From Escherichia coli (GTDB taxonomy: Bacteria; Pseudomonadota; Gammaproteobacteria; Enterobacterales; Enterobacteriaceae): a stretch of 64,000 nucleotides of DNA. The stretch is taken from assembly GCF_044324875.1 (NCBI RefSeq), contig NZ_CP172185.1; one strand, given 5' to 3'. Within the stretch, counting starts at the first letter, position 1. Each line of letters begins with the position of its first letter. Below, piece by piece: positions 12,742-40,451 of the stretch. The notes below the pieces were generated by a model. It did not search any database, was not told the DNA's origin, and was given only the letters and a program-made list of their open reading frames with translations. The translations under genes were made by a program, and so were the position numbers.

Positions 12742-13245
12742 ATGAGCCACTTTAATGATTTATGCCAGATCAATCGTGAAGCTGAAGAAAAACGCGCTGA
12801 GGCAGCTCAAATTTTGCGGGATGAAGCGGCAAGGCTGATTGATTTCTATGAAGAATGGCTGGGGCTTCCATCCATGTACTGGGAAGACGATGATGGCGAC
12901 CTGCACCGCTACGTGGAGACAGGCTTGCCATGTAAGACAGCGGCGGATTTTAGTCCTCTTTCAGTCCACAATATCGCATCTGCACCAGACAATATTTTCC
13001 GCATGGCCGTGCGAACCTGGGTTAAGTCATCTGACAGCAGCTACCCGGTAAGCGTGGTTATTGCACTTGAATTATATTCAGTAGATGCGGAACGGGTGTC
13101 TCTGAGAGTCCGGGTGGAAGACGATATTTCTGTTCGCGTATTTATCAATAAACCCAGCGAAGAAGCCTGGGGCGATGTTGTTATGCACATGAAAAAGCAC
13201 ATCGCTAATCACCTGAAAAAGCGAGCGCCATCAGCACTTCGTTAA
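12742..13245 (+). CDS. Hypothetical acidic protein (167 aa) next to the portal gene
   Basis: AGAGGA RBS before ATG at 12742; an upstream in-frame GTG at 12541 is an alternative start. Confidence 0.45.
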   Translation: MSHFNDLCQINREAEEKRAEAAQILRDEAARLIDFYEEWLGLPSMYWEDDDGDLHRYVETGLPCKTAADFSPLSVHNIASAPDNIFRMAVRTWVKSSDSSYPVSVVIALELYSVDAERVSLRVRVEDDISVRVFINKPSEEAWGDVVMHMKKHIANHLKKRAPSALR

Positions 13246-16118: not shown

Positions 16119-16272
16119 TTCTCCCCCTCATGTGATTCAGGCAGTTTACTCACCCCTTACAGGCCTCCTGCCATGCCCGGTGTTGTCGGCATTCGCTTAC
16201 AACAAACGCACTTTGTCTGTCCCTGCCCCGTTTTGCCATCATGAGACAAACGATCATCACGAGGGCCCGACA

Positions 16273-21739: not shown

Positions 21740-22354
21740 ATGAGTAACATGTTTGTCAATATCCGGCTGGCAACCAGCCCGCAGGCAGTGAAGCGCATTG
21801 CCGCGCATGTGGGTAAGGAGCTGCGGCGCGTGAACCAGAGCCGGATGCGCGCCCAGAAAGCGCCGGACGGTTCGGTGTGGACACGCCGTAAACGCCGTAT
21901 ATCACGCCTTCAGGAGCGCATCAGCTTTATCTGGCAAAACCAGAACCGCACCCTGAAAAACTGGCATCACGGTTCAGGAAAATACGGCCAGACCATCACC
22001 GGCTGGGATGAAGACCGGAGCGGCATACGTACCTTTTACCGGAGTGATATCCTCCGTTTCCTTGAAATCAGGACACGCCGCATCAACCGTGACACCACAA
22101 AAACGGTGCCGATGTTTGCGAAGCTGCGCACGGCCCGTTATCTGAAAGTGAAGGCGGACGCATCAGGCGTGACGGTGGGCTACAGCGGCGTGGCGGCACG
22201 CATTGCCCGCGTTCACCAGTTCGGGGAGCGCGACCGGGTGGCCGCAGGGATGTATACGGATTATCCGGCCCGTGAACTTCTTGGAATAACACCGGCAGAT
22301 GAACGACTTATTCAGCGTATCATTATGGACAATATCGCGAGGGCTGTGGCATGA
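21740..22354 (+). CDS. S: Tail completion/virion morphogenesis protein, P2 gpS-like
   Basis: Position between R and V; start uncertain (21698 or 21740). Confidence 0.6.
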   Translation: MSNMFVNIRLATSPQAVKRIAAHVGKELRRVNQSRMRAQKAPDGSVWTRRKRRISRLQERISFIWQNQNRTLKNWHHGSGKYGQTITGWDEDRSGIRTFYRSDILRFLEIRTRRINRDTTKTVPMFAKLRTARYLKVKADASGVTVGYSGVAARIARVHQFGERDRVAAGMYTDYPARELLGITPADERLIQRIIMDNIARAVA

Positions 22355-24738: not shown

Positions 24739-26973
24739 ATGAGCACGAGAAAATTCAGAACCCTTATCACCGACATCGGGCTGGCAAAGCTGGCCGCAAC
24801 AACGGCGCCTGGCGGTAGACCTGTACGCCTTACGCACATGGCTGTAGGGGACGGCAATGGAGAGCTTCGTCAGCCGCAGAAAAACCAGACATCGCTTTAC
24901 AATGAGGTTTGGCGCCAGTCTGTCAACCGCGTCTTCACCGACCCGGAGAACCCGAACCGCCTCATCGCCGAACTGGTCATTCCTCCTGAAACCGGCGGAT
25001 TCTGGGTGCGTGAAATTGGTGTGTTTGATGATACAGGTACAATGATTGCAGTAGGAAATACCGCTGAAAGTTACAAGCCCACCAGAGAGGAAGGTTCAGG
25101 GCGGGCGCAGATATTCCGTGCAGTAATCACCGTCACCTCCGACGCCGTGGTGGAACTGGTCATGGACACAACAACAATTCTGCCGACCACGGACTACATT
25201 GATGAGAAAATGGCGGAACACGCACGTTCCCGTAACCACCCTGACGCGACACTGACAGAAAAAGGATTCACCCAACTGAGCAGCGCCACAAACAGCACCT
25301 CTGAAACACTGGCCGCCACACCGAAGGCCGTCAAGGCTGCATATGACCTTGCAGCCGGTAAAGCACCCGCCAGCCACACCCACCCGTGGAATCAGATAAC
25401 TGGTGTGCCATCAGCCTCGCTGACGGCAAAAGGCACCGTACAGCTGAGCAGTGCCACAAACAGTGAGTCAGAGACTGAGGCGGCCACCCCCAAAGCGGTT
25501 AAAGCCTTACACGATATGGTGACGAGCAAGTATACAGGACAGGATGCAACCACCGGACGCAAAGGCATCGTACAGCTGAGCAGCGCCACAAACAGCAATT
25601 CCGAAACACTGGCGGCCACACCGAAGGCAGTAAGTGATGCACTGAGCATGGCGTTCGTGAAGCCAACAACATCCCTGGGGGAAACAGACCTGAACACTCT
25701 GGGGCGTAAGGAAGACGCGGGAGATTATTACCAGCAGAGTGACTCAGGTGCGAGAACAGACAGAAACTATCCTGTAGAGAAGGCAGGAGAGTTACGCATC
25801 CGTGTTGGTGCATGGGGATTCTGCCAGCATGAATACACGAGCTGGGATCCGCCACGAAAATTTATCAGGACAGTTACCGGAAACTTTAACGGTAACGGCC
25901 CATGGTCAGAGTGGGTGGAGGTGACAAACACAGATGCAACAACTGGACGCAAAGGCATCGTACAGCTGAGCAGCGATACAAACAGCAATTCCGAAACGCT
26001 GGCGGCCACACCAAGAGCCGTCAAGGCTGCATATGACCTTGCAGCCGGTAAAGCACCCGCCAGCCACACCCACCCGTGGAATCAGATAACAGGTGTGCCA
26101 TCAGCCTCGCTGACGGCAAAAGGCACCGTACAGCTGAGCAGTGCCACAAACAGTGAGTCAGAGACTGAGGCCGCCACCCCCAAAGCGGTTAAAGCCTTAC
26201 ACGATATGCTGACGAGCAAGTATACAGGACAGGATGCAACCACCGGACGCAAAGGCATCGTACAGCTAAGCAGCGCCACAAACAGCAATTCCGAAACGCT
26301 GGCGGCCACACCAAAAGCTGTTAAAGCTGCGTATGACCTTGCCAACAGCAAAGCCTCGGCAGCCCACACTCATCGCTGGGCTCAGATCACAGACGCCCCT
26401 GTTTTTTCGTCTGTTGCCCGCGTCATCATGGGTAAACAAAGCATAAAAGATATTCTTGATTACTTTGGTTTAGGAGAAGGCTCGACGCTGCCAGTTGGCG
26501 TACCCGTTCCGTGGCCTTCGTCAAGACCACCTGAGGGGTGGTTACAGTGCAACGGTGCCGCATTCACGCGTACAAAATACCCAAAACTGGCGGTGGCCTA
26601 CCCTGACCTCAGGCTACCAGATTTGCGCGGGGAATTTATTCGTGGATGGGATGACCTGCGAATGATTGACAGGGGACGCTTATTGTTATCCACACAGGAA
26701 GCAACATATATTTGTACCGCCATACAGGCGTACCACGGCGTAGCGGGAGGTGCAGATATTCAGGCAGGGATTTCATTTGCATCACATGATAACGACATCA
26801 TAAACATAACCCCTGATCAACCCAGAACCGGTAACGGCATCCTGTACGGCACAAAACCAGTTGACAGATGGGCAATAGCCAGAGCCGGTAAGCTGGTGAG
26901 TAATGAAAAAGACAGATGGATAGCGATCAGACCGCGCAATATCGCTTTTAATTATATTGTGAGGGCAGTTTAA
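24739..26973 (+). CDS. H: Tail fibre protein, P2 gpH-like, with internal repeats
   Basis: 744 aa; conserved N-terminal domain followed by repeated LSSATNS-SET(L/E)AATPKAVKA motifs. Confidence 0.85.
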   Translation: MSTRKFRTLITDIGLAKLAATTAPGGRPVRLTHMAVGDGNGELRQPQKNQTSLYNEVWRQSVNRVFTDPENPNRLIAELVIPPETGGFWVREIGVFDDTGTMIAVGNTAESYKPTREEGSGRAQIFRAVITVTSDAVVELVMDTTTILPTTDYIDEKMAEHARSRNHPDATLTEKGFTQLSSATNSTSETLAATPKAVKAAYDLAAGKAPASHTHPWNQITGVPSASLTAKGTVQLSSATNSESETEAATPKAVKALHDMVTSKYTGQDATTGRKGIVQLSSATNSNSETLAATPKAVSDALSMAFVKPTTSLGETDLNTLGRKEDAGDYYQQSDSGARTDRNYPVEKAGELRIRVGAWGFCQHEYTSWDPPRKFIRTVTGNFNGNGPWSEWVEVTNTDATTGRKGIVQLSSDTNSNSETLAATPRAVKAAYDLAAGKAPASHTHPWNQITGVPSASLTAKGTVQLSSATNSESETEAATPKAVKALHDMLTSKYTGQDATTGRKGIVQLSSATNSNSETLAATPKAVKAAYDLANSKASAAHTHRWAQITDAPVFSSVARVIMGKQSIKDILDYFGLGEGSTLPVGVPVPWPSSRPPEGWLQCNGAAFTRTKYPKLAVAYPDLRLPDLRGEFIRGWDDLRMIDRGRLLLSTQEATYICTAIQAYHGVAGGADIQAGISFASHDNDIINITPDQPRTGNGILYGTKPVDRWAIARAGKLVSNEKDRWIAIRPRNIAFNYIVRAV
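25331..26315 (+). repeat. Near-identical ~295-bp direct repeats inside the tail-fibre gene
   Basis: 25331-25625 and 26021-26315 are almost identical at nucleotide level (offset 690 bp); shorter repeat at 25947-26015. Confidence 0.8.
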
Positions 26974-27584
26974 TGAGTAACACTGCAGTTCTGGATGAAA
27001 ACGGTATCGCCACTTTCGCAGGCGATATCACTGTATATCACTATGATGAGGAAACCCGGGAATACACCTCATCCTCTGTGGAGTATCTCGCCCTGGGGGT
27101 GGGTACCCCGGCACATTCATGCGCCGATGCCCCGCCAGAGGCAATGCCGGGTTACGTGATTTGCCGGACGTCCACGCTGGACGGGTGGGAGTATGTCCCC
27201 GATCATCGTGGAGAGACGGTATACAGCACAGAGAACGGTAATCCGGTCCAGATTACCCAACCAGGTGACTACCCGGAAGGGACAACGACAAAACAGCCTG
27301 CCACACCATGGGATACCTGGAACGGTGAGGCGTGGGTAACCGATACAGAACGGCAGCAAGCCGAAGAGCTGGAGGTTGCCAGACAGCAACGCAAGGAACG
27401 GGTGGATCAGGCGATGAAGTCCATCGACCTCATCAACCTTAAGTTGCGGGCAGGTCGCAGTCTGACACCAGAAGAAACGGCAAAACTGAATGCCGTGCTG
27501 GATTATATCGACGAGCTGAACGCACTGGATATCAGCACGGAGCCTGAAATAAGCTGGCCGGAAACACCACCAGAAATGGAATGA
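26973..27584 (+). CDS. G: Tail fibre assembly chaperone, P2 gpG-like
   Basis: 203 aa directly after the tail fibre gene. Confidence 0.75.
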   Translation: MSNTAVLDENGIATFAGDITVYHYDEETREYTSSSVEYLALGVGTPAHSCADAPPEAMPGYVICRTSTLDGWEYVPDHRGETVYSTENGNPVQITQPGDYPEGTTTKQPATPWDTWNGEAWVTDTERQQAEELEVARQQRKERVDQAMKSIDLINLKLRAGRSLTPEETAKLNAVLDYIDELNALDISTEPEISWPETPPEME

Positions 27585-27624
27585 GCGGGGAAAAGGAACG
27601 GGCATTCATAAATAATTCATCATG

Positions 27625-27652
27625 CAGGTGCCGCAAGAATGCGGCACATTAC
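27625..27652. terminator. Hairpin between convergent tail-fibre-assembly and gpU genes
   Basis: Perfect 8-bp stem GTGCCGCA-AGAA-TGCGGCAC at 27628-27647. Confidence 0.5.
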
Positions 27653-27654
27653 CT

Positions 27655-28143
27655 TCACATCAGATCATTTACGCCGCTTACTGTGGTATTCCAGACCGAA
27701 CTTAACTTCCCTTTCATTCCCGAAAGCATATCAGACACCGGCGACGAGGCCATACTCTCCCGCAAATCCTCATCACAGCGTTCCAGACTGACAGTGAACT
27801 CAATTTTTTTGGCCTTACCGTGGCGGTCAAGTTCGCTTCGCGTTGTGCGGACAGCCGTTATCACATACATGCCGTATATCTGCCCCACACCGTCAATCAG
27901 CGGCCATGGGCGACCAGTGTAAGCCTGCGTCGTTAAAAGGCTGAGGGAAACCTCACCGCCGGTAATTTCGGGATAAAGCACACCGGACAACGTGATCTGG
28001 TCGTCACCCGCCCCGATATACTGCCAGCTGGCCGAACGATTGATGCGTTCATTTTTAACGTGGCGCCAGGTTTTATTATGTTGCAGTTGTTGATGAGGCA
28101 GCGTACGCAACTCAAAAACAAACATGCCGTAAATCATCATCAT
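27655..28143 (-). CDS. U: Tail protein, P2 gpU-like
   Basis: 162 aa; recalled gpU motifs (GDDxITLxGVLYPEITGG, KPWPLIDG). Confidence 0.8.
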   Translation of the reverse strand: MMMIYGMFVFELRTLPHQQLQHNKTWRHVKNERINRSASWQYIGAGDDQITLSGVLYPEITGGEVSLSLLTTQAYTGRPWPLIDGVGQIYGMYVITAVRTTRSELDRHGKAKKIEFTVSLERCDEDLRESMASSPVSDMLSGMKGKLSSVWNTTVSGVNDLM

Positions 28144-28154
28144 GCGAGGTACTC

Positions 28155-31100
28155 CTAATCTCTGTCACGGAAACTACCGACTGTCTGGCGGATACGGCGT
28201 TCCATTTCCGCACGGACGGCATCACCCACCATTTTTGCCAGTTCGCGCGGGTTTTGCGTGTGAACATCATGCAGGTGAATATGCAGTTCGCCAGTTAATC
28301 CCCATGGTGCCGGCTCACTCTGGCGCGGTCGGGGCGATGCGGGGGATATGGGCTGGCGCACAGCCTCAACCACCGGACGGGATGTTGCCGCCATCACTGG
28401 TGTCATTAGCGGGGAGAACGTCGGCATGACATCGTGAGTCATAACCGGTTTGATCACCGGCGGAACCACTGGCGTAATATTACCGGACAGTACCGGACGG
28501 ACGACCGGAGGAATAACCGGCACATTATTCACGGACACCACCGGCTTCACGACCGGCGACACGTTCGCCGTGGTGGATATCAGCGGCGAAACACTGACAG
28601 GCGGTGGCGCTGGCAGCGGTGGCAACGAAGGCACACTGACCGACGGCACCTGCGGCAGTCTGACAGGTGGCTCACTGACACTACCCGGTAACAGGGAAGC
28701 TGCTCGGTTAAAGCGTTCCTCCTTCCACTCACCACGAACGGCCAGCGCTTCCGGCAGGTTTTTAAAGATAATATCGCCGGGACCAGCGCGTTTTTTCGCC
28801 TGTTTCGCCTCATCCAGCAGACCACCGGTGTTATCGACGATTTTGTTCAGGCGGCGCATAGTGCCGGTATTCTCCCCCGTCAGGGGTGGTTGCCCCCCTT
28901 TGGGTTTTTCGCCGTCTTTTTTATCCTCGTCCTTTTTCGGCGGATTAATGACGTTAACATCCGCCAGAAGCATGGCAGCTTTCTCGTTCAGCAACTCCTT
29001 CTGTTTTAGTTCTTCCGCCTTTTTCCGGGCGCGCTCAACCGCCGACGGAATCAGCCCGAGTTTTTCCAGCACCCGGGTTAATGAGTCAATCAGCAGCGTA
29101 ACCGGACCGGTCACCAGATTGCTGATAAACTCCCCTACCTTCTGCCCGAACGTACGCCCGGCTTCCGTGCACTTGTCCAGCTCATCCTTTGTTGTGCTTA
29201 CCGGCGCGAACAAATCCACGAACCACTGCCACACACGCCCGATTGTCTGCCCGACATACTCAAACAGCGGTCCCAGTGGTGCCACAGCCTCGCGCAGTGG
29301 CGTAAGCCCCTGCCACAGGCCGGACAAGAACCCGCCCACGACAGCCTTCAGCTGGTCCCAGTGCCGCCAGATAAGCACTGCCGCACCGACCAGTGTCGCC
29401 ACCACAAGGCCCACCGGACTTAACAGAAAACCCAGCGCCCCGCCAAGTGCGCCCACCGCACCACTCACCATCCCCCACAGTGCGGGCAGACCTGACAGTC
29501 TGAGCGCCAGTATTCCGATACCGCGCCCCAGTGAAATCAGTGCGCCGCCAGGTGAAGTGAACGCAGCCAGCAGACCACCACGCAGCGCGCCAAGTCCCGC
29601 CTGCACACCACGAAGCCGCCCCGCAACTACGCCCAGCAGTGCAGCAAACCGTCCGGCACCGGAGGTGATACCGACAAACAGCACGCGCCAGCCACCGATA
29701 CCGCCCAGCGGACCACCGAGTACGCCGCGCAGCTGCGTCAGTAACGGCAGCGCACGACCGAGGCCGGATGTGCCGGTCAGCAGGGCAAACCCAAGACGCA
29801 GTTTTGCCAGCGGCCCCATCAACACACCAGTGGCAAGTGACAGCGCCCCCATGGCCGCAACCGCAGCCAGCAGTACACCACCGGCAATCAGCAGTTGTTT
29901 TGTCAGTTCAGGGTGCGCCTGAGCCAGCGCGGTGACTTTCGCAATAACCCGGGTGAACGACTGCGTGACAGAACGCAGCGGCCCGTCAACGAGGTCAGCG
30001 ACACGGATACGCAGTCCTTCCCATGCGCTGTTCAGTGATTTCAGGTCACCGTCCAGGTTATCAGCCATAACACGGGCAGTGTGATTAAGTTCCCCGGTGG
30101 CCAGTTCAATCTCCTGCGTAAGACGGGGAAGATTATTTTCCCCCGCCGCAGTGACAAGATTCATCAGGGAAACATAGGACTCCTGCCCGGCAATAGCCCT
30201 GAAAAAGGAGACCTGCGCGGCATTACCGTATTTTCGGGTGGCCTGGTACAGCTCATTCAGGATATTTTCCATCCGGCGCATGTTCCCGTAAGCATCCTGC
30301 GTCTCCACGCCAAGCTCTTTCAGTGCCATTGCAGCGGCCTTCGGCGGATCAACCAGACGTGACAGACTGGCACGCAGCGCCGTACCTGCATCACTTCCAC
30401 GGATCCCCACACTGCCAAGGACACCCGTCATGGCTGCCGCCTGTTCAAGGGACAGGCCAAGTGAAGCTGCAACCGGACCCGTGTACTTCATGGTTTCACC
30501 CAGTGAACGGAGATCCGTATTGGTTCGTGTGAAGGTGGCGGCCAGCGTGTCACCCACGCGATCCATCTGGTCAGCGGACAGACCAAACTGTGTGAGGATA
30601 TTCGAACTGATATCGGCAGTCTGTCCCAGGTCCATCCCTGCAGCCATTGCCAGATCAAGCACGCCGGGTAGCGCCGCCTGTATGGCCTGTGGTGTGAAGC
30701 CGGCCATGGCAAGGAACGCCTGACCGCTGGCAGCATCACCGGCGGTAAACTGCGTTTCAGAGCCCAGCTTAATGGCCTGTTCGCGCAGCGCCTTAAACTG
30801 CGGACTGTTTTTGTCAATACGGGTCAGCGCCTGGACGCGTGACATCTCCTTACCAAAACTGACCGCCGGTTGCAGGAAACGTCCGGCCGCATAGCCGCCT
30901 GCCGCCGCCGTACCAACCGCCGTAAGTCCGACCGTTTTAAGTTTTCCCGCCGTCTCCTGAGCACGGGAATATTGCTGGCGTGCCTGCGTGACACGTGCCA
31001 GCGCCTGCCGTTCGCGTTCCAGCTGGTCGTTGTATTGCTGTGTTCGCCGTATGGCCTGTTGAATGGTGTTGTCACTGCCGGAAAGCGCAATACCGTGGCG

Positions 31101-31466
31101 CCGCAGCTCACCACCCAGTTCGCGCATTCGCTGAACTTCACGCGCACGGACCTCATTGAGACGCTCAAGTTTGAGGCTCAAATCGTTCATCAGCTTTTTC
31201 TGTTTGTCAGACAGCACGGTTCCGGCGCGCTGAATTTGCTGAAGTGCGCTTAACTGGCGTTGTGCCCGGGCAATGCCGTTTCCGGCCTTGTTTGCAGCCT
31301 CGCGGGCGCGATCAAATGAACGGGCGTGGCGTTCCAGGTTTTTGATCGCACCCTGCGTTCTCTGTATGGAGTCGCCAAGCTGGCCCATCATGCGACGGGC
31401 GTTTTCGGTGGGACGGGTCAGCCTGTCAACAGCGCTGAAGGCGACCCGTATATCAAGCGTTTTCAT
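28155..31466 (-). CDS. T: Tail tape measure protein, P2 gpT-like
   Basis: ~1100 aa, coiled-coil N-terminus, Gly/Ala-rich TM-like middle, Pro/Val-rich C-terminus; start MKTLDI overlaps the E' stop. Confidence 0.85.
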   Translation of the reverse strand: MKTLDIRVAFSAVDRLTRPTENARRMMGQLGDSIQRTQGAIKNLERHARSFDRAREAANKAGNGIARAQRQLSALQQIQRAGTVLSDKQKKLMNDLSLKLERLNEVRAREVQRMRELGGELRRHGIALSGSDNTIQQAIRRTQQYNDQLERERQALARVTQARQQYSRAQETAGKLKTVGLTAVGTAAAGGYAAGRFLQPAVSFGKEMSRVQALTRIDKNSPQFKALREQAIKLGSETQFTAGDAASGQAFLAMAGFTPQAIQAALPGVLDLAMAAGMDLGQTADISSNILTQFGLSADQMDRVGDTLAATFTRTNTDLRSLGETMKYTGPVAASLGLSLEQAAAMTGVLGSVGIRGSDAGTALRASLSRLVDPPKAAAMALKELGVETQDAYGNMRRMENILNELYQATRKYGNAAQVSFFRAIAGQESYVSLMNLVTAAGENNLPRLTQEIELATGELNHTARVMADNLDGDLKSLNSAWEGLRIRVADLVDGPLRSVTQSFTRVIAKVTALAQAHPELTKQLLIAGGVLLAAVAAMGALSLATGVLMGPLAKLRLGFALLTGTSGLGRALPLLTQLRGVLGGPLGGIGGWRVLFVGITSGAGRFAALLGVVAGRLRGVQAGLGALRGGLLAAFTSPGGALISLGRGIGILALRLSGLPALWGMVSGAVGALGGALGFLLSPVGLVVATLVGAAVLIWRHWDQLKAVVGGFLSGLWQGLTPLREAVAPLGPLFEYVGQTIGRVWQWFVDLFAPVSTTKDELDKCTEAGRTFGQKVGEFISNLVTGPVTLLIDSLTRVLEKLGLIPSAVERARKKAEELKQKELLNEKAAMLLADVNVINPPKKDEDKKDGEKPKGGQPPLTGENTGTMRRLNKIVDNTGGLLDEAKQAKKRAGPGDIIFKNLPEALAVRGEWKEERFNRAASLLPGSVSEPPVRLPQVPSVSVPSLPPLPAPPPVSVSPLISTTANVSPVVKPVVSVNNVPVIPPVVRPVLSGNITPVVPPVIKPVMTHDVMPTFSPLMTPVMAATSRPVVEAVRQPISPASPRPRQSEPAPWGLTGELHIHLHDVHTQNPRELAKMVGDAVRAEMERRIRQTVGSFRDRD

Positions 31467-31979
31467 GCTCTGCGTTCCCGCTGCGAAGGGCCGCCCGCTC
31501 ACGCCAGGCGACCACCTCGCCGGGATCCATCAGGAAGATTTCAGCGGGAGACCAGTTGAAAATAACGGCGATATCCGCCACAAAGTCTTCAATATGCTCA
31601 AAGGGCACGACGGTTATCAGCCTGCCGTCGCCGCCACGCTCTTCCCGCCAGAGTCCTGACCGGCCAAAAAATTAACCGCCACCCCGCACAGCTGAATAAA
31701 ATCAGCGGACCCCATGCGCTTAAGCAGAACCTCGTCCAGTCGCGGCGAAGTGACGCGCGGGAGTAACTCAAACATCGCGTCCGTTTTCATGTTCAGCACG
31801 TCAAGCAGTGACAGCCCGCGCAGTGAACCGGCCTGCTGTACAGCAGGCGTGATTTCCACATACGTGATTTTTTTGTTACCGAGCACAAGGGGCGTTTTCA
31901 GCGTCACGCCGCGCTCACTGGTCACGTCCGCCGCATCAGCACCGTCAGTAACAGGGGCAACAACCGGATTTTCTTTCAT
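31454..31979 (-). CDS. E: Tail assembly chaperones gpE (31617-31979) and frameshift extension E' (to 31454)
   Basis: E is a 120-aa ORF; a -1 frame is open from the slippery site to a stop at 31454 that overlaps the T start. Confidence 0.7.
31665..31671 (-). other. Programmed -1 ribosomal frameshift site (T TTT TTG) for E/E'
   Basis: Heptamer TTTTTTG in X_XXY_YYZ register within E, 15 codons before the E stop. Confidence 0.65.
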
Positions 31980-32029
31980 GCATAAAACCTCAAATCAGGG
32001 GGCGACGCCGCGCGCCGCCGTGGGAAACA

Positions 32030-32548
32030 TTAACCACCAAGACCAATCGCCGAGCGCACGCGGTCCGGGAAGACGTTTTTGCCGTCCTTGCGTTCGATGT
32101 GGTTCAGTAAATCAATCTCCAGCACCGGACGGTCGTTAATGCTGAGTTTGTAGTAGGTACTCCTGACCGCATAGGTGTGAGACGTGACCTCACCCTGTTT
32201 TGCCTCCCCCGTATCAATTTCCGTCACGCGGCCGCGAAGCTCAATTTCATACAGGTCGCTCTGCTCTTCATCGTTGTAGTACTCACCGACAAAGCGCAGC
32301 AGCGTACCGTCGATCGTGCCGCCGTACTTAAGGAACAGTTCGCGGGTCGGCCCGCCCATGGTGAAACTCGCATCCAGCGCGCCGTCATCCAGACCAAGGT
32401 CGATATTCACCGCGCCGGCCATACCACCACCGCGATAGGCTTCCGTTTTACGGGTCAGTTTGGGGGGCGTGAAGCCGGTCACCCTGCCAATCTGGTTCAC
32501 CCCGTCAGTAAACAGCGTGAACACCCTGAGATTTTTTGGTACGGCCAT
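32030..32548 (-). CDS. FII: Tail tube protein, P2 gpFII-like
   Basis: 172 aa directly downstream of the sheath gene. Confidence 0.8.
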   Translation of the reverse strand: MAVPKNLRVFTLFTDGVNQIGRVTGFTPPKLTRKTEAYRGGGMAGAVNIDLGLDDGALDASFTMGGPTRELFLKYGGTIDGTLLRFVGEYYNDEEQSDLYEIELRGRVTEIDTGEAKQGEVTSHTYAVRSTYYKLSINDRPVLEIDLLNHIERKDGKNVFPDRVRSAIGLGG

Positions 32549-33831
32549 TAAGCACCTCCAAGCGTCGCAAATGCAGGACCAAAGAATTCATCAGTAAACG
32601 TCTGGTAAAGTTCCATATCCTCAAGCGGCGGAACGGGCGTGTACTTGTAGCGGATACGCACGCGTCCCTGACGAAGTTCCGTGGTGCTGTTATCCACCAC
32701 GTCATACCAGCACTCCGCACCAACGAGACGTCCTGACGTAACCAGCGCATCCAGTTTTGCGCGAATTGCGCTTAACACGTCTTTCACATTAGCAGGGGTC
32801 AGCGGGGCATCAATCGTTTCAAACTGCGCTTCCGCAATGGAATCAGCCAGCACCTGAGCGGTTCGCGTGTACACCTCAAAGATATACGCCTTCGTTTCCG
32901 GCGTACGGTTGCCCCAGAAGCGGAAACCGTTACGGCAAATGATGGTAGTGATTTCCTTGTTGTTGAGATTGTTGGCATCGCTGTCTTCGGACTGAAGGGA
33001 CCAGAACACCGGGCTGGAAATACCCAGCACATTTCTTACCGGCACGTTGGACAGCGATTTATGCCAGCCCTGTTCGTGGTCAATACGTGCACGTAAACCG
33101 CAGGCGTACGCCGCAGCCGGGAAGACCTCATTAGCGCCGGATTTCGGGTTATGGGCGATGAAGTCCGGCCAGACCAGCATAAGTTCGCGCTCGTTAAATC
33201 TGGCGCGGTAGCTGATTGCATCGGCGGGCTTCTTGCAGTTGTGACAGCCCGCGTAGACAAATGCGCGAAGTTTTTCTGCAATTACACACAGGGATTTTGT
33301 GACAGCTTCAGTATCCAGTCCGGGCGCTGCGATGATGCGCGGACGGTAACCGATGGCATCATCCTGTTCAGCTATCAGAAGTGCATACATACCGGTATAA
33401 TTACCGTCGCCATCCGTGCCACCAATGACATACTGGTCCTGCGTTTTGTGTGGGTATACAGGATGTGCATCTTCAGACTCATCAATACCAAAAAATGCCC
33501 TGTCTTCAGGATCCAGATGACCGAATGATGTAACTCCTGTATCCGGGGCGCCCTGAGAACTGGCATCAGGAACGCGCACCACAATCACCTTCGTGCTCAC
33601 CTGGTCGGCGACAGCCTTAAGCGATTTGTAAAGCGTCCCCTTTGTGCCGGCCTTACCCAGCACATCACTGACGCGGGTCAGCAGTGTGGGTTTGTTCAGC
33701 GGGAACAGAGTTTCATCCGCGTCATCTGCCGTAGCCACAATACCAATAACACTGGAATCCACATCATTAATGGCGGTGGCAAGGCCGGTACTTTCCCTTA
33801 CGCGCGCACCATGAAAGCGTGTTTCACTCAT
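32548..33831 (-). CDS. FI: Tail sheath protein, P2 gpFI-like
   Basis: Start MSETRFHGARV resembles the recalled P2 FI start MSDYHHGVQV; ~427 aa. Confidence 0.85.
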   Translation of the reverse strand: MSETRFHGARVRESTGLATAINDVDSSVIGIVATADDADETLFPLNKPTLLTRVSDVLGKAGTKGTLYKSLKAVADQVSTKVIVVRVPDASSQGAPDTGVTSFGHLDPEDRAFFGIDESEDAHPVYPHKTQDQYVIGGTDGDGNYTGMYALLIAEQDDAIGYRPRIIAAPGLDTEAVTKSLCVIAEKLRAFVYAGCHNCKKPADAISYRARFNERELMLVWPDFIAHNPKSGANEVFPAAAYACGLRARIDHEQGWHKSLSNVPVRNVLGISSPVFWSLQSEDSDANNLNNKEITTIICRNGFRFWGNRTPETKAYIFEVYTRTAQVLADSIAEAQFETIDAPLTPANVKDVLSAIRAKLDALVTSGRLVGAECWYDVVDNSTTELRQGRVRIRYKYTPVPPLEDMELYQTFTDEFFGPAFATLGGA

Positions 33832-33992
33832 ATGTTTCACCCTTGTCTGGCTGGTTGATTTTGCGTAATCATTACCCACACACGCGGTAATCTCACCCCT
33901 TTGATGTTGTCTCCTGACAGCGACAACAAAACAGCCATTCAACGCCGCTGCGGTGCATGAAACCATTACAGAACGCACCAGGAGAGAACACC

Positions 33993-35084
33993 ATGAAAGA
34001 GCTGTCAGTTACCGTTCCGTCACCGGATATCGACATCACCATCAACAACAACACACTGGCAAACCTCACAGAGCGACTCATGACGCTGACCCTGACGGAT
34101 AACCGGGCCTTTGAGGCAGACCGCGTCACCCTCACCCTTGACGATACGGACGGGCAGTTACAGTTGCCACCACGTGGCGCACGCCTGAGAGTGATGATTG
34201 GCTGGCGAGGAGAATCACTGGTTAACAAGGGCACCTACGTCGTTGATGAGGTTGCGTGGGAAGGACCTCCAGATAAACTGATCATCACCGCCAGCAGCGC
34301 AGATTTTCGGGAAGAGTTCAACGTGAGGCGGGAGGTATCCTGGCACGACGTGACCGTAAAACAGGTTGTGTCAGCCATCGCTCACCGCTACGGCCTGAAG
34401 ACACAGATAAGCGAAATCCTCATGGATATCGAAATTGACCACGCTGACCAGACCGAAGAGAGCGATATATCCTTCCTGACCCGCATGGCTGAAATGCTGG
34501 GTGCGATTGCCACCGTAAAAAACGGCAGCCTGTTATTCATTCTGCCGGGTGGCGGAACCGGGCCGGACGGAAAAGCCCTGCCTTCGTTCGCCATTACCCG
34601 CAGCAGCGGCGACAGTCACCGCTTTCGCATTGCTGACCGTGATGCGTATACGGGGGTCCGGGCGCACTGGCTCGATCTGAAGTTCGGGCACAAGAAAAAA
34701 GTGAACGTGAAGCGACGCAGGGAAGCCGGGAAACAGAAACAGGAGAAGAGCAGCAGCCGGGAGGGTGATTACATGGAAGGCGCGGAAGGGAACGTCTACG
34801 TTCTGCGCAGGACTTACCAGAATGAAGAAACCGCACGACGTGCAGCTGCGGCAAAGTGGCAGGAGTTACAGCGGGGAGCAGCGGCATTCTCCATCACTCT
34901 GGCACGGGGTCGTGCCGACCTGTATCCCGAAATGCACGGCAGGGTAACAGGTTTTAAAAGCGAGGTGGACAATCAGGACTGGATTATTGCCAGGGTGGAG
35001 CACATCATAGATGAAAGCGGCTTCACCACACAACTGGAGCTGGAAGCGAAAATCCCCGAATGGATAGCAGATTCAGGCGGATAA
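33993..35084 (+). CDS. D: Tail protein, P2 gpD-like (late control D family)
   Basis: GGAGAG RBS before ATG at 33993; ~363 aa; followed by ogr as in P2. Confidence 0.75.
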   Translation: MKELSVTVPSPDIDITINNNTLANLTERLMTLTLTDNRAFEADRVTLTLDDTDGQLQLPPRGARLRVMIGWRGESLVNKGTYVVDEVAWEGPPDKLIITASSADFREEFNVRREVSWHDVTVKQVVSAIAHRYGLKTQISEILMDIEIDHADQTEESDISFLTRMAEMLGAIATVKNGSLLFILPGGGTGPDGKALPSFAITRSSGDSHRFRIADRDAYTGVRAHWLDLKFGHKKKVNVKRRREAGKQKQEKSSSREGDYMEGAEGNVYVLRRTYQNEETARRAAAAKWQELQRGAAAFSITLARGRADLYPEMHGRVTGFKSEVDNQDWIIARVEHIIDESGFTTQLELEAKIPEWIADSGG

Positions 35085-35127
35085 AATTAAAATGAGCCAT
35101 CTCCACTCAGCCAGATAAGGAGAAGCC

Positions 35128-35379
35128 ATGTTCCGTTGTCCCCTATGCGGTGCATCCGCACGTATCCGCACCAGTCGCAATGAAAATGATTCAGGCACAG
35201 TTCGCCTGAAGTACTACCAGTGCAATAACCTCGAATGCGGGATCGGCTTTACCACACTGGAGGGTTTTAACAAATTCACATCAAAACGCGCCCCGTCGCC
35301 GCAGGGTACAGAGCGGATACCGTGGGAAGATTTTCCGGGATCTCACAGGGGGAATGCTCAGATGAATCTTGATATTTAA
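35128..35379 (+). CDS. ogr: Ogr/Delta-family zinc-finger late-gene activator
   Basis: MFRCPLCGASARIRTSR...YYQCNNLECG resembles the recalled P2 Ogr MFHCPLC...HQCQNVNC. Confidence 0.8.
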   Translation: MFRCPLCGASARIRTSRNENDSGTVRLKYYQCNNLECGIGFTTLEGFNKFTSKRAPSPQGTERIPWEDFPGSHRGNAQMNLDI

Positions 35380-35521
35380 GAACAATAATCAGGTTGAGAG
35401 GACATCATAAGGCAAGTAGATTAACGGCAGATACTTTCCCGCAACCACGGGCAAGTATTTAATTATCCATGATGAAATATGACCTAAATTGTTTTTTGCC
35501 CGCCGGAAAGCGGGCATTTTT

Positions 35522-35737
35522 TTATTCTTTTGTGGTTATGGGGTCATCAGGAACCACGTGCAGATTATATTTTTGTTTTTTTGGCGTTCCTCCGGCAGCA
35601 ACGAGTTCATCAATAAGACACTGACACGCCTGAACATCCCGGGCATGTCTTAGTTTCACCTTTATTGATTTAACCTTATCCTCACCGGAGGAGAAATGCA
35701 GTTCAATCTCAATATCGTTTCTTCGGAACAATCTCAT
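35522..35737 (-). CDS. Small hypothetical protein (71 aa); the only intact copy of a thrice-repeated gene
   Basis: AGGGGGG RBS; decayed paralogues at ~36840-36905 and ~37500-37560; palindromic AT-rich upstream region. Confidence 0.4.
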   Translation of the reverse strand: MRLFRRNDIEIELHFSSGEDKVKSIKVKLRHARDVQACQCLIDELVAAGGTPKKQKYNLHVVPDDPITTKE

Positions 35738-36094
35738 ACGCCCCCCTGAATATATCAGAAATGCTAGTATCGAAAAATGAGAAAACAGTTAGACAGGAGA
35801 AACATATTAACACAAATCATTTATACCTATAGATGAAATTATAATTTCATTCATGAATATGATAGATAACTATATTGTGAACAAAATGAAAAATGGCTAA
35901 ATTAAAAATGGGCATGGAGGAATGCCCGGTTATCAATATAATGTGACGTAGATCATTGTTTTGCCCGCCGGAGAGCGGGCATTTTTTTTGCGCCTGCCAT
36001 CGAGGCGCCTTCCCTGGCGCACACAAAGCAGCCCTGATTTTCCATGAAAACTTCAGGGTTGAGCTGCGGGCACAAAGTGAGTAGATTAGCTACG

Positions 36095-36189
36095 GGTACC
36101 TCCCCCTGACAACAGGAAGGGTGTCCATTATCCATGATATACAAACGAAAAGTCTTGTTTTTTGCCCGCCGAAGCGCGGGCATTTTTTT
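36095..36189 (+). ncRNA. Candidate sRNA unit S1 (promoter plus intrinsic terminator)
   Basis: -35 TTGAGC (36059-36064), 17-bp spacer, -10 TAGATT (36082-36087), then ~95 nt with a CCTTCC/GGAAGG stem-loop ending in the hairpin and T-run. Confidence 0.35.
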
Positions 36190-36315
36190 ATGCATCAGAC
36201 AAGATACAGCCCACCCCAACTGACACCTGAAATATTGCCGCAACAAAAAGAAACAGTTAAATTACGCGCGGGTGCCTTTCGGCTGATGGCCGGAGGGAAA
36301 ACCTGAAGGCCGGAT

Positions 36316-36549
36316 GTGGAAAGGCCCCGGAAAACATTTCTGTTTAACCGAGGCCCTAACCGCATTACCTTGACAAGTGAAAGGTTAGCGCCTCTCCGGA
36401 AAAGGAGCAAGTGCTATGTCGCAAAAATCGCTTACGGCCATCACGTTCTGCGTGACGGCAATCCTCATCATCTGGATATTGCACGGTTCGCTGTGCGAAA
36501 TACGGATGAGCTTCTGGGGAGCGGAGTTTGCGGCGTTCTTACAATGTAA
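36316..36549 (+). CDS. mok-like overlapping reading frame of the hok-like locus
   Basis: 77-aa ORF starting ~100 nt upstream of and overlapping the hok-like ORF in another frame. Confidence 0.4.
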   Translation: MERPRKTFLFNRGPNRITLTSERLAPLRKRSKCYVAKIAYGHHVLRDGNPHHLDIARFAVRNTDELLGSGVCGVLTM

Positions 36550-36556
36550 GAAGTAA
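36416..36556 (+). CDS. Hok/Gef-family type I toxin (46 aa)
   Basis: MSQKSLTAITFCVTAILIIWILHGSLCEIRMSFWGAEFAAFLQCKK: TM helix then SLCEIR and E(V/F)AAF motifs as in plasmid R1 Hok; AAGGAG RBS. Confidence 0.7.
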   Translation: MSQKSLTAITFCVTAILIIWILHGSLCEIRMSFWGAEFAAFLQCKK

Positions 36557-36645
36557 GGAAACCGCGACGGGGGAGCAATCCCCCGTCAATCGGTTGCCAG
36601 GGTAAGGTCGATAAGGCACCCTATCTCACAGACATGAACAACAAA

Positions 36646-36676
36646 CCCGCAGCATAAAAACTGCGGGTTTTCTTTT
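36646..36676 (+). terminator. Intrinsic terminator of the hok-like transcript
   Basis: Hairpin CCCGCAG-CATAAAAA-CTGCGGG followed by TTTTCTTTTT. Confidence 0.6.
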
Positions 36677-37265
36677 TGGTGTCCTCACCGACTTGAAACA
36701 GTGATCAGACTATAAGACAAAGCCCGCAATGTTGCGGGCTTACTCTACCTCTCGAAAATGTGGTCACTGCGTGGACATACGCTGATACAAATCCTTTATA
36801 TCAATAAATTAAATCTTTGTTTTTTTCATCAACAATGATTTAACCTTATCCTCACCGGAGGAGAAATGCAGTTCAATCTCAATATCGTTTCTGTGGAACA
36901 GCCTCATAAGACAACCTCCTGAATTCATCAGAAACACAGTCAACTGAAAACCAGAAAGCAGACAAACAGTGGACACACATTAATACAAATCATTTATACC
37001 TATAGATGAAATTGCAGTTTCATCTATAACATGACAGGTAACAATATTGTGAAAAAACTCAAAACTCGTTAGATTAAAGACGGACAGAGCAATGCTACTT
37101 TATCAATAACATGTAACCTGTACTTCCTTATTTTGCCCGCCGAAGCACGGGCATTTTTTTTGCGCCTGCCATCGAGGCGCCTTCCCTGGCGCACACAAAG
37201 CAGCCCTGATTTTCCATGAAAACTTCAGGGTTGAGCCAAAAGCACAAAGACAGTAGATTAACCAC

Positions 37266-37359
37266 GGGTGCCTTCCACCTGACAACAGGAAGGGTGTCCA
37301 GTATCAATGACAGACAACTCACATTGCTGTTTTGCCCGCCGGAAAGCGGGCATTTTTTT
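37266..37359 (+). ncRNA. Candidate sRNA unit S2
   Basis: Same -35/17 bp/-10 (TTGAGC...TAGATT at 37231/37254) and terminator architecture as S1. Confidence 0.3.
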
Positions 37360-37914
37360 ATTCTTTTGTGGTTATTGGGTCATCAGGAACAACATGCAGA
37401 TTATGCTTTGATTTTTTTGGTGTTATTACAGCAGCAACGAGTTTATTAATAAGACACTGACATGCCTGAACATCCCTGACATATCATAATTTCACTTTAT
37501 TTTTTTAGCTTGTCCTTTCTGGAGCAGAAATATCTCAACATCGTTTCTGTGGAACAACCTCATTTGCCCCTGAATGTATCATAAATATCAGCATCGGAAA
37601 ACCAACAGCAATACAGAAGAAACATGTTAATGCAAATCACTTATACCTATAGATGAAATTACAGTTTTGTTCATAAATATGATAAGTAACTATATTGTGA
37701 ATAAAATGAAAACTAGCTAAATTAAACGTGGGCATGGTGGAATGCCTCGTAATCAATAATACATGATCCGTACTTCCTTGTTTTGCCCGCCGGAAAGCGG
37801 GCATTTTTTTGGCGGTTACCATCGCCTCACCTTCCTGGTTCACATGAAGCAACCCTGATTTTCCATGAAAACTTCAGGGTTGAGACAAAAGCACAAAGAC
37901 AGTAGATTAACCAC

Positions 37915-38007
37915 GGGTACCTTCCACCTGACAACAGGAAGGCTGTCCAGTATCAATGACAGACAACTCACATTGCTGTTTTGCCCGCCGGAAAGCGGGC
38001 TTTTTTT
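37915..38007 (+). ncRNA. Candidate sRNA unit S3
   Basis: -35 TTGAGA 37879, -10 TAGATT 37902, terminator hairpin 37983-38000. Confidence 0.3.
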
Positions 38008-38112
38008 GGCAGTTATCATAGCCGCACCTTCCTGGCACATATGAAGCAACCCTGATTTTCCATGAAAACTTCAGGGTTGAGACAAAAGCACAAAAACAGT
38101 AGATTAACCACG

Positions 38113-38208
38113 GGTGCCTGCCACCTGACAACAGGAAGGGGTGTCCATTATCCATGATATACAAACGAAAAGTCTTGTCTTTTGCCCGCCAAAGCGCGGG
38201 CATTTTTT
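38113..38208 (+). ncRNA. Candidate sRNA unit S4
   Basis: -35 TTGAGA 38077, -10 TAGATT 38100, terminator hairpin 38184-38201. Confidence 0.3.
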
Positions 38209-38420
38209 TATGCATCAGACAAGATACAGCCCACCCCAACTGACACCTGAAATATTGCCGCAACAAAAAGAAACGGGTGCCTTTCGGCTGATGGCCGGAG
38301 GGAAAACCTGAAGGCCGGATGTGGAAAGGCCCCGGAAAACATCTGTGTTTAACCGAGGCCTGACCCTTCCTACCGTGACAAGTGGAAGGTTAGCGCCTCT
38401 TTGTAAAAGGAGCAAGCGCT

Positions 38421-38561
38421 ATACCGCAAAAAACGATTATTGTTGGCATTTTATGCCTGACAATAACCCTGGTCATCTGGATGGTCCACGATTCGTTATG
38501 TGAATTCAGCTTTGATATCTGGGGAGCGCGTTTTGCGGCGTTCTTGCAGTGTAAACCGTAA
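38421..38561 (+). pseudogene. Degenerate second hok-like copy
   Basis: Start codon ATG replaced by ATA, LCEIR changed to LCEFSF; the matching mok-like frame (38321-38503) is truncated. Confidence 0.6.
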
Positions 38562-38711
38562 GAAACCGCAGCGGGGGAGAAATTCCCCGCTATCCGGTTG
38601 TTGGGGTGGGCCGATATGGCGCCCTTTCCCTGTAGAGACAAAACAAAAAACCAGATTTGCCCGCCATTGAGAGGGCTTTTTTGTCACCCTCACCAGTGAG
38701 GGCATCATCAT

Positions 38712-38939
38712 TCAGAGGCGCGTAAGCCACCCGGCGTTAACATCCTGCCTGTCAACCCTGGCCGCAGAGTCTGAACGGCAGGTACCGGAAGGAGTACCAA
38801 AAACATCCCTGACAAGTTCCGCCACCTTCCCGATATCATCAGGTGTCACATTCCTCACCTCGGCCGTGATCCGTGGCGTACCATCATCGTTAACAAGAGT
38901 GGCTTTAAAGCTGGTGCGAAGGGAAAACAACATCAACAT
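38712..38939 (-). CDS. Hypothetical small protein (75 aa)
   Basis: ORF only; between the repeat array and serS. Confidence 0.25.
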   Translation of the reverse strand: MLMLFSLRTSFKATLVNDDGTPRITAEVRNVTPDDIGKVAELVRDVFGTPSGTCRSDSAARVDRQDVNAGWLTRL

Positions 38940-39094
38940 CCCCTCCCTTTGGTTCGTTGCACTGACGGCACGACACCATCAGGAAAAAGAAAAGCCCACA
39001 ACGTCAGTATTGTGGACTTTTTTCTTCAAAGATGGACATTATCTGGACACATGAAAATAAAATCCATTTATTTTCATATAGTTAAGTACCATGC

Positions 39095-39117
39095 AAAAGC
39101 GCCCGCAGGCGCTTTTT
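39095..39117. terminator. Intrinsic terminator downstream of serS
   Basis: AAAAGCGCCCGCAGGCGCTTTTT hairpin, symmetric A/T flanks. Confidence 0.6.
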
Positions 39118-39137
39118 AGATTCAGAAAAATTGGGTA

Positions 39138-40451
<1,314 letters not shown>

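Follow-up and report, generated by a model that had tools for sequence, protein, structure and literature searches.

The FI-to-U tail block of an Escherichia coli prophage has the inverted orientation of P88-like phages and probably shares one Ogr-type dyad with D-ogr

In phage P2, V-W-J-I-H-G and FI-FII-E-E'-T-U-D-ogr all lie on one strand according to the P2 record, which bears out the comparison made in an earlier note on the present sequence; the latter genes form the F operon (pF-FI-FII-E-E'-T-U-D, then ogr). The four Ogr-dependent late promoters of P2 have the consensus TGT-N12-ACA (PMC3931495). The P2 record assigns a single activator site (3057-3087) to both pO and pP, whose transcripts start 111 bp apart, at 3016 and 3127.

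A second layout is found in P88 and its relatives (Xuanwuvirus; Senquatrovirus, SEN4/SEN5; Novemvirus, phiT5282H; Reginaelenavirus, 3LV2017; Reipivirus, ST16-OXA48phi5.4), where V to H-G run rightward, U-T-E'-E-FII-FI leftward and D-ogr rightward again, and FI and D diverge from a spacer of about 150-205 bp with a GACAAC dyad. Phages of this layout are functional, induction or plaque formation being described for P88 and PhiSM (PMC5285337, PMC6456863). In the P88 paper (PMC5285337) the words orientation, inversion, synteny and operon do not occur, the PhiSM paper (PMC6456863) sets its phage beside P88 with no comment on layout, a Burkholderia P2-like phage paper mentions only IS repeats, and a literature search on P2-like phages found no description of this FI-U inversion.

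Gene layout and its prevalence

The window (the whole 64,000-nucleotide stretch of E. coli DNA analysed here) carries a prophage of the second kind. Genes were assigned from the listing of open reading frames, PHROG profiles and the RefSeq annotation of a near-identical E. coli prophage (99.9% identity), which has the same gene calls:

24739-26973, plus strand: tail fibre H (PHROG tail fibre family, E 1e-194; RefSeq annotation of the near-identical prophage)
26973-27584, plus strand: fibre assembly protein G (PHROG fibre-assembly family, E 2e-87; RefSeq annotation of the same prophage)
27585-27654: convergent G/U spacer, 70 bp (from the sequence)
27655-28143, minus strand: gpU-like tail protein (phrog_76, E 3e-71)
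28155-31466, minus strand: tape measure T, 1103 aa, ATG at 31466 (phrog_28, E 7e-183; start as in the RefSeq coordinates of the near-identical prophage, the longest T reading frame extending to 31502)
31617-31979, minus strand: tail chaperone E (phrog_103, E 4e-31)
31453-31979, minus strand: tail chaperone E+E' by a predicted -1 frameshift (slippery heptamer TTTTTTG at 31671-31665)
32030-32548, minus strand: tail tube FII (phrog_55, E 1e-54; RefSeq 'phage major tail tube protein')
32548-33831, minus strand: tail sheath FI, 427 aa, ATG at 33831 (phrog_23, E 2e-117)
33832-33992: divergent FI/D spacer, 161 bp, a predicted bidirectional late control region (sequence; conservation over 18 divergent relatives)
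33993-35084, plus strand: gpD, late control D or VgrG-like tail hub protein (phrog_52, E 7e-148; RefSeq start)
35128-35379, plus strand: ogr, Ogr/Delta-family zinc-finger late activator (phrog_603, E 4e-14; RefSeq 'ogr/Delta-like zinc finger family protein')
35497-35516, plus strand: strong intrinsic terminator ending the D-ogr unit, TGCCCGC-cggaaa-GCGGGCA followed by T7 (terminator scan)

A full P2-like (Peduoviridae) set of tail and late genes is thus present together, with FI, FII, E/E', T, U, D and Ogr recognized by PHROG profiles (E 1e-14 to 1e-183), by tblastn with P2 proteins and by RefSeq names. The set would include the programmed -1 frameshift that is characteristic of P2-like tail modules: the open -1 frame after TTTTTTG reads PFEHIEDFVADIAVIF... 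and encodes a segment to 31453 that RefSeq names 'GpE family phage tail protein' in the near-identical prophage. The Ogr translation, read directly, shows a CX2C-X24-CX4C motif.

H and G (24739-27584) form the end of a rightward late operon and face a block on the minus strand, U-T-E/E'-FII-FI (27655-33831), beyond which D-ogr (33993-35379) is again on the plus strand, with gpD detached from the FI-U operon. The reading frames, PHROG and RefSeq agree with the earlier note that FI to U lies on the minus strand between plus-strand H-G and D-ogr, so that G and U converge across one gap and FI and D diverge across the other; they also support its view of a block inverted relative to P2 with internal order kept. 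The canonical P2 order, with FI-FII-E-T-U-D as a single operon sharing the strand of V-W-J-I-H-G, is absent from the window; the arrangement is that of P88, with U-T-E-FII-FI antiparallel to H-G and D-ogr and an FI/D spacer within the 150-205 bp range. It matches, in order and strands, the annotated maps of P88-type phages and every IMG/VR locus in which D is at least 61% identical.

The layout is widespread. The 8.9-kb span 26500-35400 is present, unbroken, collinear and at least 99% identical, in 26 complete E. coli genomes. A junction query covering FI, spacer and D (33350-34450) finds a one-piece match in 1139, or about a fifth, of the 5426 complete E. coli genomes. Among the best 80 hits in IMG/VR, the orientation is inverted in all 71 loci with D at least 61% identical, and collinear in all nine at about 51%. 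The synteny comparison that the earlier note had proposed, with P2 and related phages, finds P2 collinear and the inverted layout common to P88-like phages of five ICTV genera (Xuanwuvirus/P88, Senquatrovirus, Novemvirus, Reginaelenavirus and Reipivirus). It is seen on the annotated maps of P88, P88_4B11, SEN4, phiT5282H, 3LV2017, ST16-OXA48phi5.4 and 520873, and tblastn coordinates add PhiR44_2, Chuche, Shae_phiSM, KSP20, Kp48xx phages and 503458; the P2-like order is that of P2, Fels-2, Gegevirus, ENT90, Dobby and FLC10. D and FI are encoded in roughly 520 phage records. Prophages of the P88 type abound in E. coli, Klebsiella, Enterobacter, Citrobacter, Salmonella and Serratia.

The orientation is thus ordinary, the normal, ancient architecture of a large P88-like family, and almost certainly a fixed trait of that lineage. 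The earlier note had named routine sharing by close relatives as the finding that would speak against its reading, and the orientation is common to all 80 relatives with about 60% identity or higher in D. As an anomaly it is a false lead and matters little in itself; it does show that the P2 order is not universal for Peduoviridae, which calls for caution in annotators and in synteny-based prophage classifiers, and the divergent FI/D junction offers a clean marker for the P88-like clade.

The FI/D spacer and late control

A search for Ogr-type motifs in 33832-33992, also proposed in the earlier note, finds a perfect dyad, around which the following elements are placed:

33868-33873, minus strand: predicted -10 box of the FI promoter, AATGAT (conserved AT.AT columns at a fixed distance from the dyad)
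33906-33927: Ogr-type dyad GTTGTC-N10-GACAAC, a perfect palindrome centred at 33916.5 that contains TGT-N12-ACA
33958-33966, plus strand: predicted extended -10 box of a D promoter, TG-a-AACCAT (conserved tG..A.cAT columns at a fixed distance on the D side)
33980-33985, plus strand: AGGAGA ribosome site upstream of D
16182-16203: second dyad, GTTGTC-N10-TACAAC, in the gap between terminase P and scaffold O, counterpart of the activator site shared by P2 pP and pO

From the dyad centre it is 85.5 bp to the ATG of FI and 76.5 bp to that of D. In the 64 kb this is the sole dyad with no mismatch, and the sole match with one mismatch is the second dyad, flanked by the starts of terminase P (16118, minus strand) and scaffold O (about 16274, plus strand). 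The exact TGT-N12-ACA is not enriched over the window (13 found, 16 expected) and the relaxed 22-mer dyad at up to three mismatches occurs at chance (28, against 27.8 expected), so that only the matches with no or one mismatch are meaningful. Both contain partial dyads of the TGT-N12-ACA type (TGTCTCCTGACAGCGACA at 33908-33925 and TGTCGGCATTCGCTTACA at 16184-16201), and the FI/D spacer thus has, upstream of a late operon, the element typical of Ogr/Delta-dependent promoters; the cognate C4 zinc-finger activator gene is present in the same prophage, as ogr.

Among relatives, the dyad scores at least 9 of 12 in 61 unique spacers, and its distance to the FI ATG is 81.5-88.5 bp, compared with 82.5-84.5 bp for the centre of the pF dyad in P2 and collinear relatives. 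In the conservation profile of 18 divergent relatives the half-sites carry 1.50 bits per position and the N10 spacer, which varies freely, 0.52. Boxes resembling a -10 element occur on both sides of the dyad, at about 45 bp in the window and at 41-50 bp across relatives, the right distance for a dyad centred near -55 from the predicted starts. In the window these starts are predicted near 33861 for FI (minus strand), about 55 bp from the dyad centre, and near 33973 for D (plus strand), about 56 bp from it. A sigma-70 scan of 27400-35600 finds no consensus promoter in the FI/D spacer, as is expected for activator-dependent promoters.

This geometry suggests that one Ogr-type site drives FI-U leftward and D-ogr rightward, which we consider rather probable. 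The earlier note had argued that the FI/D gap must hold two promoters; the gap does look like a promoter region, but two independent promoter systems are not needed, since one dyad sits symmetrically between two -10-like boxes, as annotated for pP and pO of P2. Independent control, with the dyad restricted to the FI operon, like pF in P2, and D-ogr read from an Ogr-independent promoter or from another activator site, appears unlikely, though it is the alternative that survives best. It would account for the asymmetry of the site in relatives, where the left half-site is often degenerate (GTTCTC, GGTCTG) and the D-proximal GACAAC(AAAA) nearly invariant; in the P88 subgroup the left half is GTTCTC, so that the exact TGT-N12-ACA is missing there. 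It would also fit the separate promoter of ogr in the P2 record and a TAAAAT box at 35090-35095, in the gap between D and ogr of the window. However, the FI/D spacer has one dyad only, the -10-like box on the D side keeps its distance from the dyad centre in spacers that cannot otherwise be aligned, the scan shows no sigma-70 consensus promoter in the spacer, and the geometry equals that of the pP/pO pair.

With the site shared, the FI-U transcript would end within the 70-bp gap facing G, and the D-ogr transcript at the terminator at 35497-35516. The G/U gap contains a G+C-rich hairpin of 8 bp (GTGCCGCA/TGCGGCAC, at about 27628-27647) with no canonical T-run, whose folding z-scores are only -1.4 (plus strand) and -2.2 (minus strand), marginally better than shuffled sequences; the terminator scan of 27400-35600 finds no canonical terminator in this gap, and the hairpin is a candidate for a two-way transcript end.

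Origin of the inverted block

Neighbor-joining trees, built without support values, show the inverted loci as monophyletic for D, FI, FII and U, with identities within the clade down to 52-55%. Collinear phages (those listed above, from P2 to FLC10) surround this one inverted clade, and the inversion is thus most probably derived, single and old. In the corresponding trees of baseplate J and tape measure T the inverted clade is not monophyletic, so that the late region is mosaic. Traces of the breakpoints were sought at the U C-terminus and the D N-terminus; both are variable but homologous in the two layouts, and alignable with those of P2, Fels-2 and P88, with no truncation.

The proposed course of events is that a segment of roughly 6.3 kb, comprising the late promoter pF with its Ogr-binding dyad and FI-FII-E/E'-T-U, inverted once in the ancestor of the lineage and was then fixed. 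This would have moved the dyad-symmetric activator site of pF next to D and cut D from its upstream operon; D and ogr would then have come to be transcribed from a new rightward promoter reading the same dyad from the opposite side, in the way that one site serves pP and pO in P2. The predicted shared dyad would thus be a simple, testable case in which a palindromic activator site lets an inversion split an operon without loss of late control. Taken whole, the reading as the standard late-gene layout of a large and old lineage of temperate Peduoviridae in Enterobacterales, comprising the P88/Xuanwuvirus group and allied genera, with one ancestral inversion and shared-dyad late control, is very probably right.

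A more far-reaching proposal, on which our judgement is evenly poised, is that the inversion gave rise to a second bidirectional Ogr-dependent control region, and that the whole late regulon of the clade might run from two bidirectional sites (P/O and FI/D), against three sites and four promoters in P2, with ogr under its own activator site. Two sites might suffice because S and V overlap at 22351-22354, which leaves no intergenic room for a pV-type promoter. The literature search found no paper describing a two-site bidirectional late regulon with ogr under its own activator site.

The FI-U module may instead have been acquired in opposite orientation from another P2-like phage, the FI/D junction being a recombination joint. 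The mosaicism of the region, with J and T outside the pattern of the other genes, speaks for such an exchange, as does the uncoupling of D and FI identities to the window in some loci (D 76% and FI 67% in L008; D 74% and FI 75% in L042). Against it, D, which lies outside the block, and FI, FII and U, which lie within, give the same monophyletic inverted clade; the closest identities between inverted and collinear phages are nearly equal for D (56.9%) and FI (56.7%); the pF dyad and the ATG are spaced as in collinear enterobacterial relatives; and among collinear lineages no donor with a closer FI was seen. Inversion in situ and module swap are not separable with certainty, and we regard the swap as quite unlikely.

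Far less probable still is a programmed invertible segment under a Gin/Cin/Pin-type invertase, like the tail-fibre switch that adjoins the block in P88. Its appeal lies in the DNA invertase genes that adjoin the U end of the block in P88-type relatives and the FI end in Fels-2 and ENT90, but no invertase gene lies between H and U in the window, nor in 37 of the 45 inverted loci that could be evaluated, the window lacks the crossover core AAACCNNGGTTT, which P88 has only at the two fibre-switch sites, and the other orientation is found in none of the 80 clade members and none of the 26 near-identical E. coli prophages. Inverted repeats were sought in 27300-34300, and none has arms at both junctions. 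As flanking repeats, invertase gene and crossover sites are all missing, the block is not a switch: an active Din-family (Gin/Cin/Pin/Hin) system is rejected and an ongoing one effectively refuted, a rejection that does not extend to an ancient aberrant invertase event as the origin. Nor is the orientation a noteworthy feature of this prophage. That it is an artefact of assembly, or arose recently in this strain alone, finds no supporting evidence and has next to no probability, the same junctions being present in the 26 independent complete genomes, at lower identity in the 1139 E. coli genomes, and in phages that were isolated and sequenced.

Comparison with P88, Smp131 and P2

The proteins nearest to those of the window are those of P88 (D 79%, FI 77% identity), although a megablast of the 10.7-kb late region against deposited phages covers only about 13% of the query, at about 78%; the prophage extends leftward beyond the window. 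P88 has an invertible fibre cassette and a DNA invertase between G and U, both of which this prophage lacks, whereas the prophage has a 33-aa insertion in its sheath, a longer tape measure (1103 aa) and, in place of the imperfect P88 dyad, a perfect palindrome. In Smp131, a P2-like phage of Stenotrophomonas, late operons have also exchanged members by rearrangement, yet TGT-N12-ACA-like promoters and an activator resembling Ogr are retained (PMC3931495); there, however, it is V and W that moved between operons, in another host lineage, and FI-U is not inverted.

The P2 F operon has the same genes in the same internal order, the same E/E' frameshift site TTTTTTG and an equivalent terminator after ogr, which the P2 record assigns to ogr and the F operon alike; its pF dyad stands 82.5 bp from the FI ATG, against the same distance of 85.5 bp in the window. 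In the window, however, the segment running from pF to U has the strand opposite to that of V-G and D-ogr, and D is uncoupled from U both translationally and transcriptionally, whereas the two genes overlap in P2, at the stop of U and the start of D. The closest parallel to the FI/D junction is the pP/pO pair of P2, where one dyad also lies midway between two divergent late units and the annotated starts are spaced almost exactly as those predicted around 33916.5 (about 112 bp). The window keeps the true P/O counterpart of this pair in addition, at 16182-16203; pP and pO serve packaging and head genes, and the FI/D pair is predicted to serve tail genes, FI-U and D-ogr.

Gene layout of the late region

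The prophage belongs to the P2-like tail-module family and lies in an E. coli chromosome segment, where it adjoins serS, rarA, lolA and ftsK. Its late genes, assigned by ORF listing and PHROG profiles, are distributed over both strands:

portal Q and terminase P, leftward
O-N-M-L-X-lysis-R-S-V-W-J-I-H-G, rightward, last base 27584
27655-28143, leftward, U
28155-31466, leftward, tape measure T
31453-31979, leftward, E/E'
31671-31665, minus strand, E/E' frameshift site TTTTTTG
32030-32548, leftward, FII
32548-33831, leftward, FI
33993-35084, rightward, D
35128-35379, rightward, ogr
35497-35516, strong terminator after ogr (terminator scan)

In the P2 record, by contrast, V to G and FI to D-ogr all lie on one strand, and the stop of U overlaps the start of D. 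Set against this record, the gene map bears out both the observation and the coordinates of the earlier note, which had described the FI-U block as opposite in strand to its P2 counterpart: G and U converge over 70 bp, and FI and D diverge over 161 bp. The prophage thus departs from the canonical P2 order, and in gene order and strands it agrees with the P88-type layout (here "inverted"), in which FI-U is antiparallel to H-G and D-ogr; the single-strand P2 type is here called "collinear".

Relatives and history of the layout

At the DNA level, the closest deposited phages are P88, P88_4B11, 500465-2 (Xuanwuvirus) and Citrobacter Shae_phiSM, all with the same layout in their annotated maps. By tblastn, D and FI are also adjacent on opposite strands in PhiR44_2, Chuche, Enterobacter phiT5282H, Serratia KSP20, Klebsiella 3LV2017, ST16-OXA48phi5.4 and the Kp48xx phages, Salmonella SEN4 and SEN5, and E. 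coli 520873 and 503458; according to their records, inverted phages span five ICTV genera (Xuanwuvirus, Senquatrovirus, Novemvirus, Reginaelenavirus, Reipivirus). IMG/VR was surveyed by D-protein alignment followed by tblastn with the tail proteins of the window and of P2. Among the best 80 hits, all 9 loci with a D about 51% identical to that of the window are collinear, and all 71 with a D 61-99% identical are inverted, so that the orientation pointed out in the earlier note is routine among close relatives. Together with the named phages, this gives 80 inverted and 15 collinear loci.

P2, Fels-2, Klebsiella ST437-OXA245phi4.1 (Gegevirus), Erwinia ENT90, Pseudomonas Dobby (Citexvirus) and Burkholderia FLC10 are all collinear, which makes the P2 order the ancestral one. 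Neighbour-joining trees with P2 as root, computed without support values, group the inverted loci in a single clade for each of D, FI, FII and U; the clade is not recovered for J and T, a sign of the mosaicism that is usual in baseplate, fibre and tape-measure genes. Within the clade, D identity goes down to 55% and FI identity to 52%, versus at most 57% to collinear relatives, so that its depth approximates the split from these, as would fit a single old inversion. A swap of the module, instead of a flip of FI-U in place, is conceivable, but D, outside the block, gives the same clade as FI, FII and U inside it, and all four are equally distant from collinear relatives.

The block as an active switch is rejected: no inverted repeats were found bounding it, the late-gene region of the window lacks an invertase gene in the H-U interval, the Din-family crossover core AAACCNNGGTTT does not occur anywhere in the window (in P88 it is found only at two tail-fibre switch sites), and the other orientation was seen in no clade member examined. 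An invertase between H and U is missing in 37 of the 45 evaluable inverted loci, so its lack here is typical. An assembly artefact, raised in the earlier note, or a private event is ruled out, as megablast against 5426 complete E. coli genomes finds 26500-35400 (8.9 kb) collinear and unbroken at ≥99% identity in 26 of them, and a 1.1-kb junction query (33350-34450: FI 5' end, spacer, D 5' end) unbroken over 80% or more of its length in 1139, where sheath and gpD annotations underlie the matches; about one in five complete E. coli genomes therefore has the divergent FI/D junction.

Other features of the tail proteins and the window

The tape measure has 1103 residues, versus 815 in P2 and 935 in P88, with a Pro/Val-rich repetitive stretch close to its C-terminus; its gene is a single open frame here, whereas the annotation of the 99.9% identical prophage in strain NRZ14408 lists a partial pseudogene. 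Compared with the P88 sheath, FI has an insertion of 33 residues (90-122; 33466-33564) and is otherwise 77% identical to it over its full length. Tail fibre H (24739-26973) has 4-6 matched stretches in PHROG and a long internal duplication, GRKGIVQLSSxTNSNSETLAATP...HTHPWNQITGVPSASLTAKGTVQLSSATNSESETEAATPKAVKALHDM being present twice.

The 3.7-kb ogr-serS interval (35380-39200) is a patchwork of repeated modules, with nine copies of a terminator-like hairpin (TTTGCCCGCC-gRRR-GCGGGCATTTTTTT) and units of 95-230 bp repeating at offsets of about 650, 1170, 1836 and 2005-2020 bp; 36269-36499 and 38274-38504, 82% alike, are two copies of the stretch that is the Hok/Gef gene site in the NRZ14408 prophage. 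The interval could represent stacked right-end remnants of prophages or an array of small toxin loci. Rfam gathering-level matches in the early region, both on the plus strand, are isrK (4575-4650, 60 bits) and, beside it, C4 antisense RNA (4686-4773, 80 bits). C4 controls the antirepressor of P1/P7, so an immunity RNA module of the P1 type may be present in the prophage. Between the replication and portal genes, the accessory region holds an IS21-family element on the minus strand; in broadly this region the NRZ14408 prophage has ISEc12 (IS21-like), there on the plus strand:

8861-11279, minus strand, IS21-family element
8861-9859, minus strand, IstB helper ATPase
within 9633-11279, minus strand, IS21 transposase

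A single CRISPR-DR4 match (Rfam, 54176-54203, minus strand, 50 bits), an isolated repeat and not an array, lies just downstream of tRNA-Ser (53809-53896) and an RtT element (53940-54074).

A predicted bidirectional Ogr site between FI and D

Late operons of P2 depend on Ogr via TGT-N12-ACA dyads (PMC3931495). The search of the FI/D spacer (33832-33992) for Ogr-type motifs, suggested in the earlier note, returned exactly one such dyad, the perfect palindrome GTTGTC-tcctgacagc-GACAAC (33906-33927). The only other dyad with at most one mismatch in the 64 kb lies between P and O (16182-16203); by our own estimate, about 0.1-0.3 would be expected by chance. In 61 unique spacers of the clade the best dyad matches at least 9/12, at a distance of 81.5-88.5 bp from the FI ATG. 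In an anchored profile built from 18 divergent spacers, the half-sites carry 1.50 bits per position, the N10 spacer 0.52 and the rest of the region 0.59. The better-kept half-site is the D-proximal GACAAC(AAAA); the left one is GTTCTC in the P88 subgroup, unlike GTTGTC here, which is why that subgroup lacks the strict TGT-N12-ACA. Conserved boxes flank the dyad at 41-50 bp on each side, AT.AT towards FI and tG..A.cAT, which resembles an extended -10, towards D:

33873 to 33868, minus strand, predicted FI-side -10-like box AATGAT (conserved AT.AT columns)
33958-33966, predicted D-side extended -10-like box TG-a-AACCAT (conserved tG..A.cAT columns)

These boxes place the predicted transcript starts around 33861 and 33973, with 55-57 bp between each start and the dyad centre.

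The distance from the pF dyad to the FI ATG is similar in collinear relatives, at 82.5-84.5 bp, which argues that the FI promoter moved with the block, its geometry intact. In the simplest reading, the inverted segment would have taken pF and its activator site along, and D, severed from its operon, would have gained a new rightward promoter, which the activator site, being a dyad, could serve as well. The terminator after ogr would now close a short D-ogr unit, much as it ends the F operon in P2. We infer this whole model (shared dyad, moved pF, new D promoter) from sequence and conservation; that D instead has an independent promoter seems rather unlikely. P88 and PhiSM, both with this layout, are inducible or plaque-forming (PMC5285337, PMC6456863), so the layout is functional.

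The G/U gap holds only an 8-bp hairpin without a T-run (folding z-scores -1.4 and -2.2). S (end 22354) and V (start 22351) overlap by 4 bp, as in P88, and thus leave no intergenic room for a separate pV promoter, terminator and orf30, which in P2 are located between these genes; O through G may form a single operon of some 11 kb. In the cargo hotspot immediately ahead of the portal gene, a 234-aa ORF (12541-13245) with no match in NCBIfam or PADLOC is preceded, at 61 bp, by TGTTGCAGTGACACAACA (12463-12480), a palindromic match to TGT-N12-ACA; this may point to an accessory gene that responds to Ogr, or be due to chance.

A literature search found no paper discussing the layout. The layout is ordinary, given that annotated RefSeq phages of five genera and one fifth of complete E. 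coli genomes have it. What is mildly new is the idea of a second bidirectional Ogr site, as predicted here; in the P2 record, one activator site (3057-3087) is annotated for the divergent pP and pO, whose transcripts start at 3016 and 3127, about 55 bp to either side of it.
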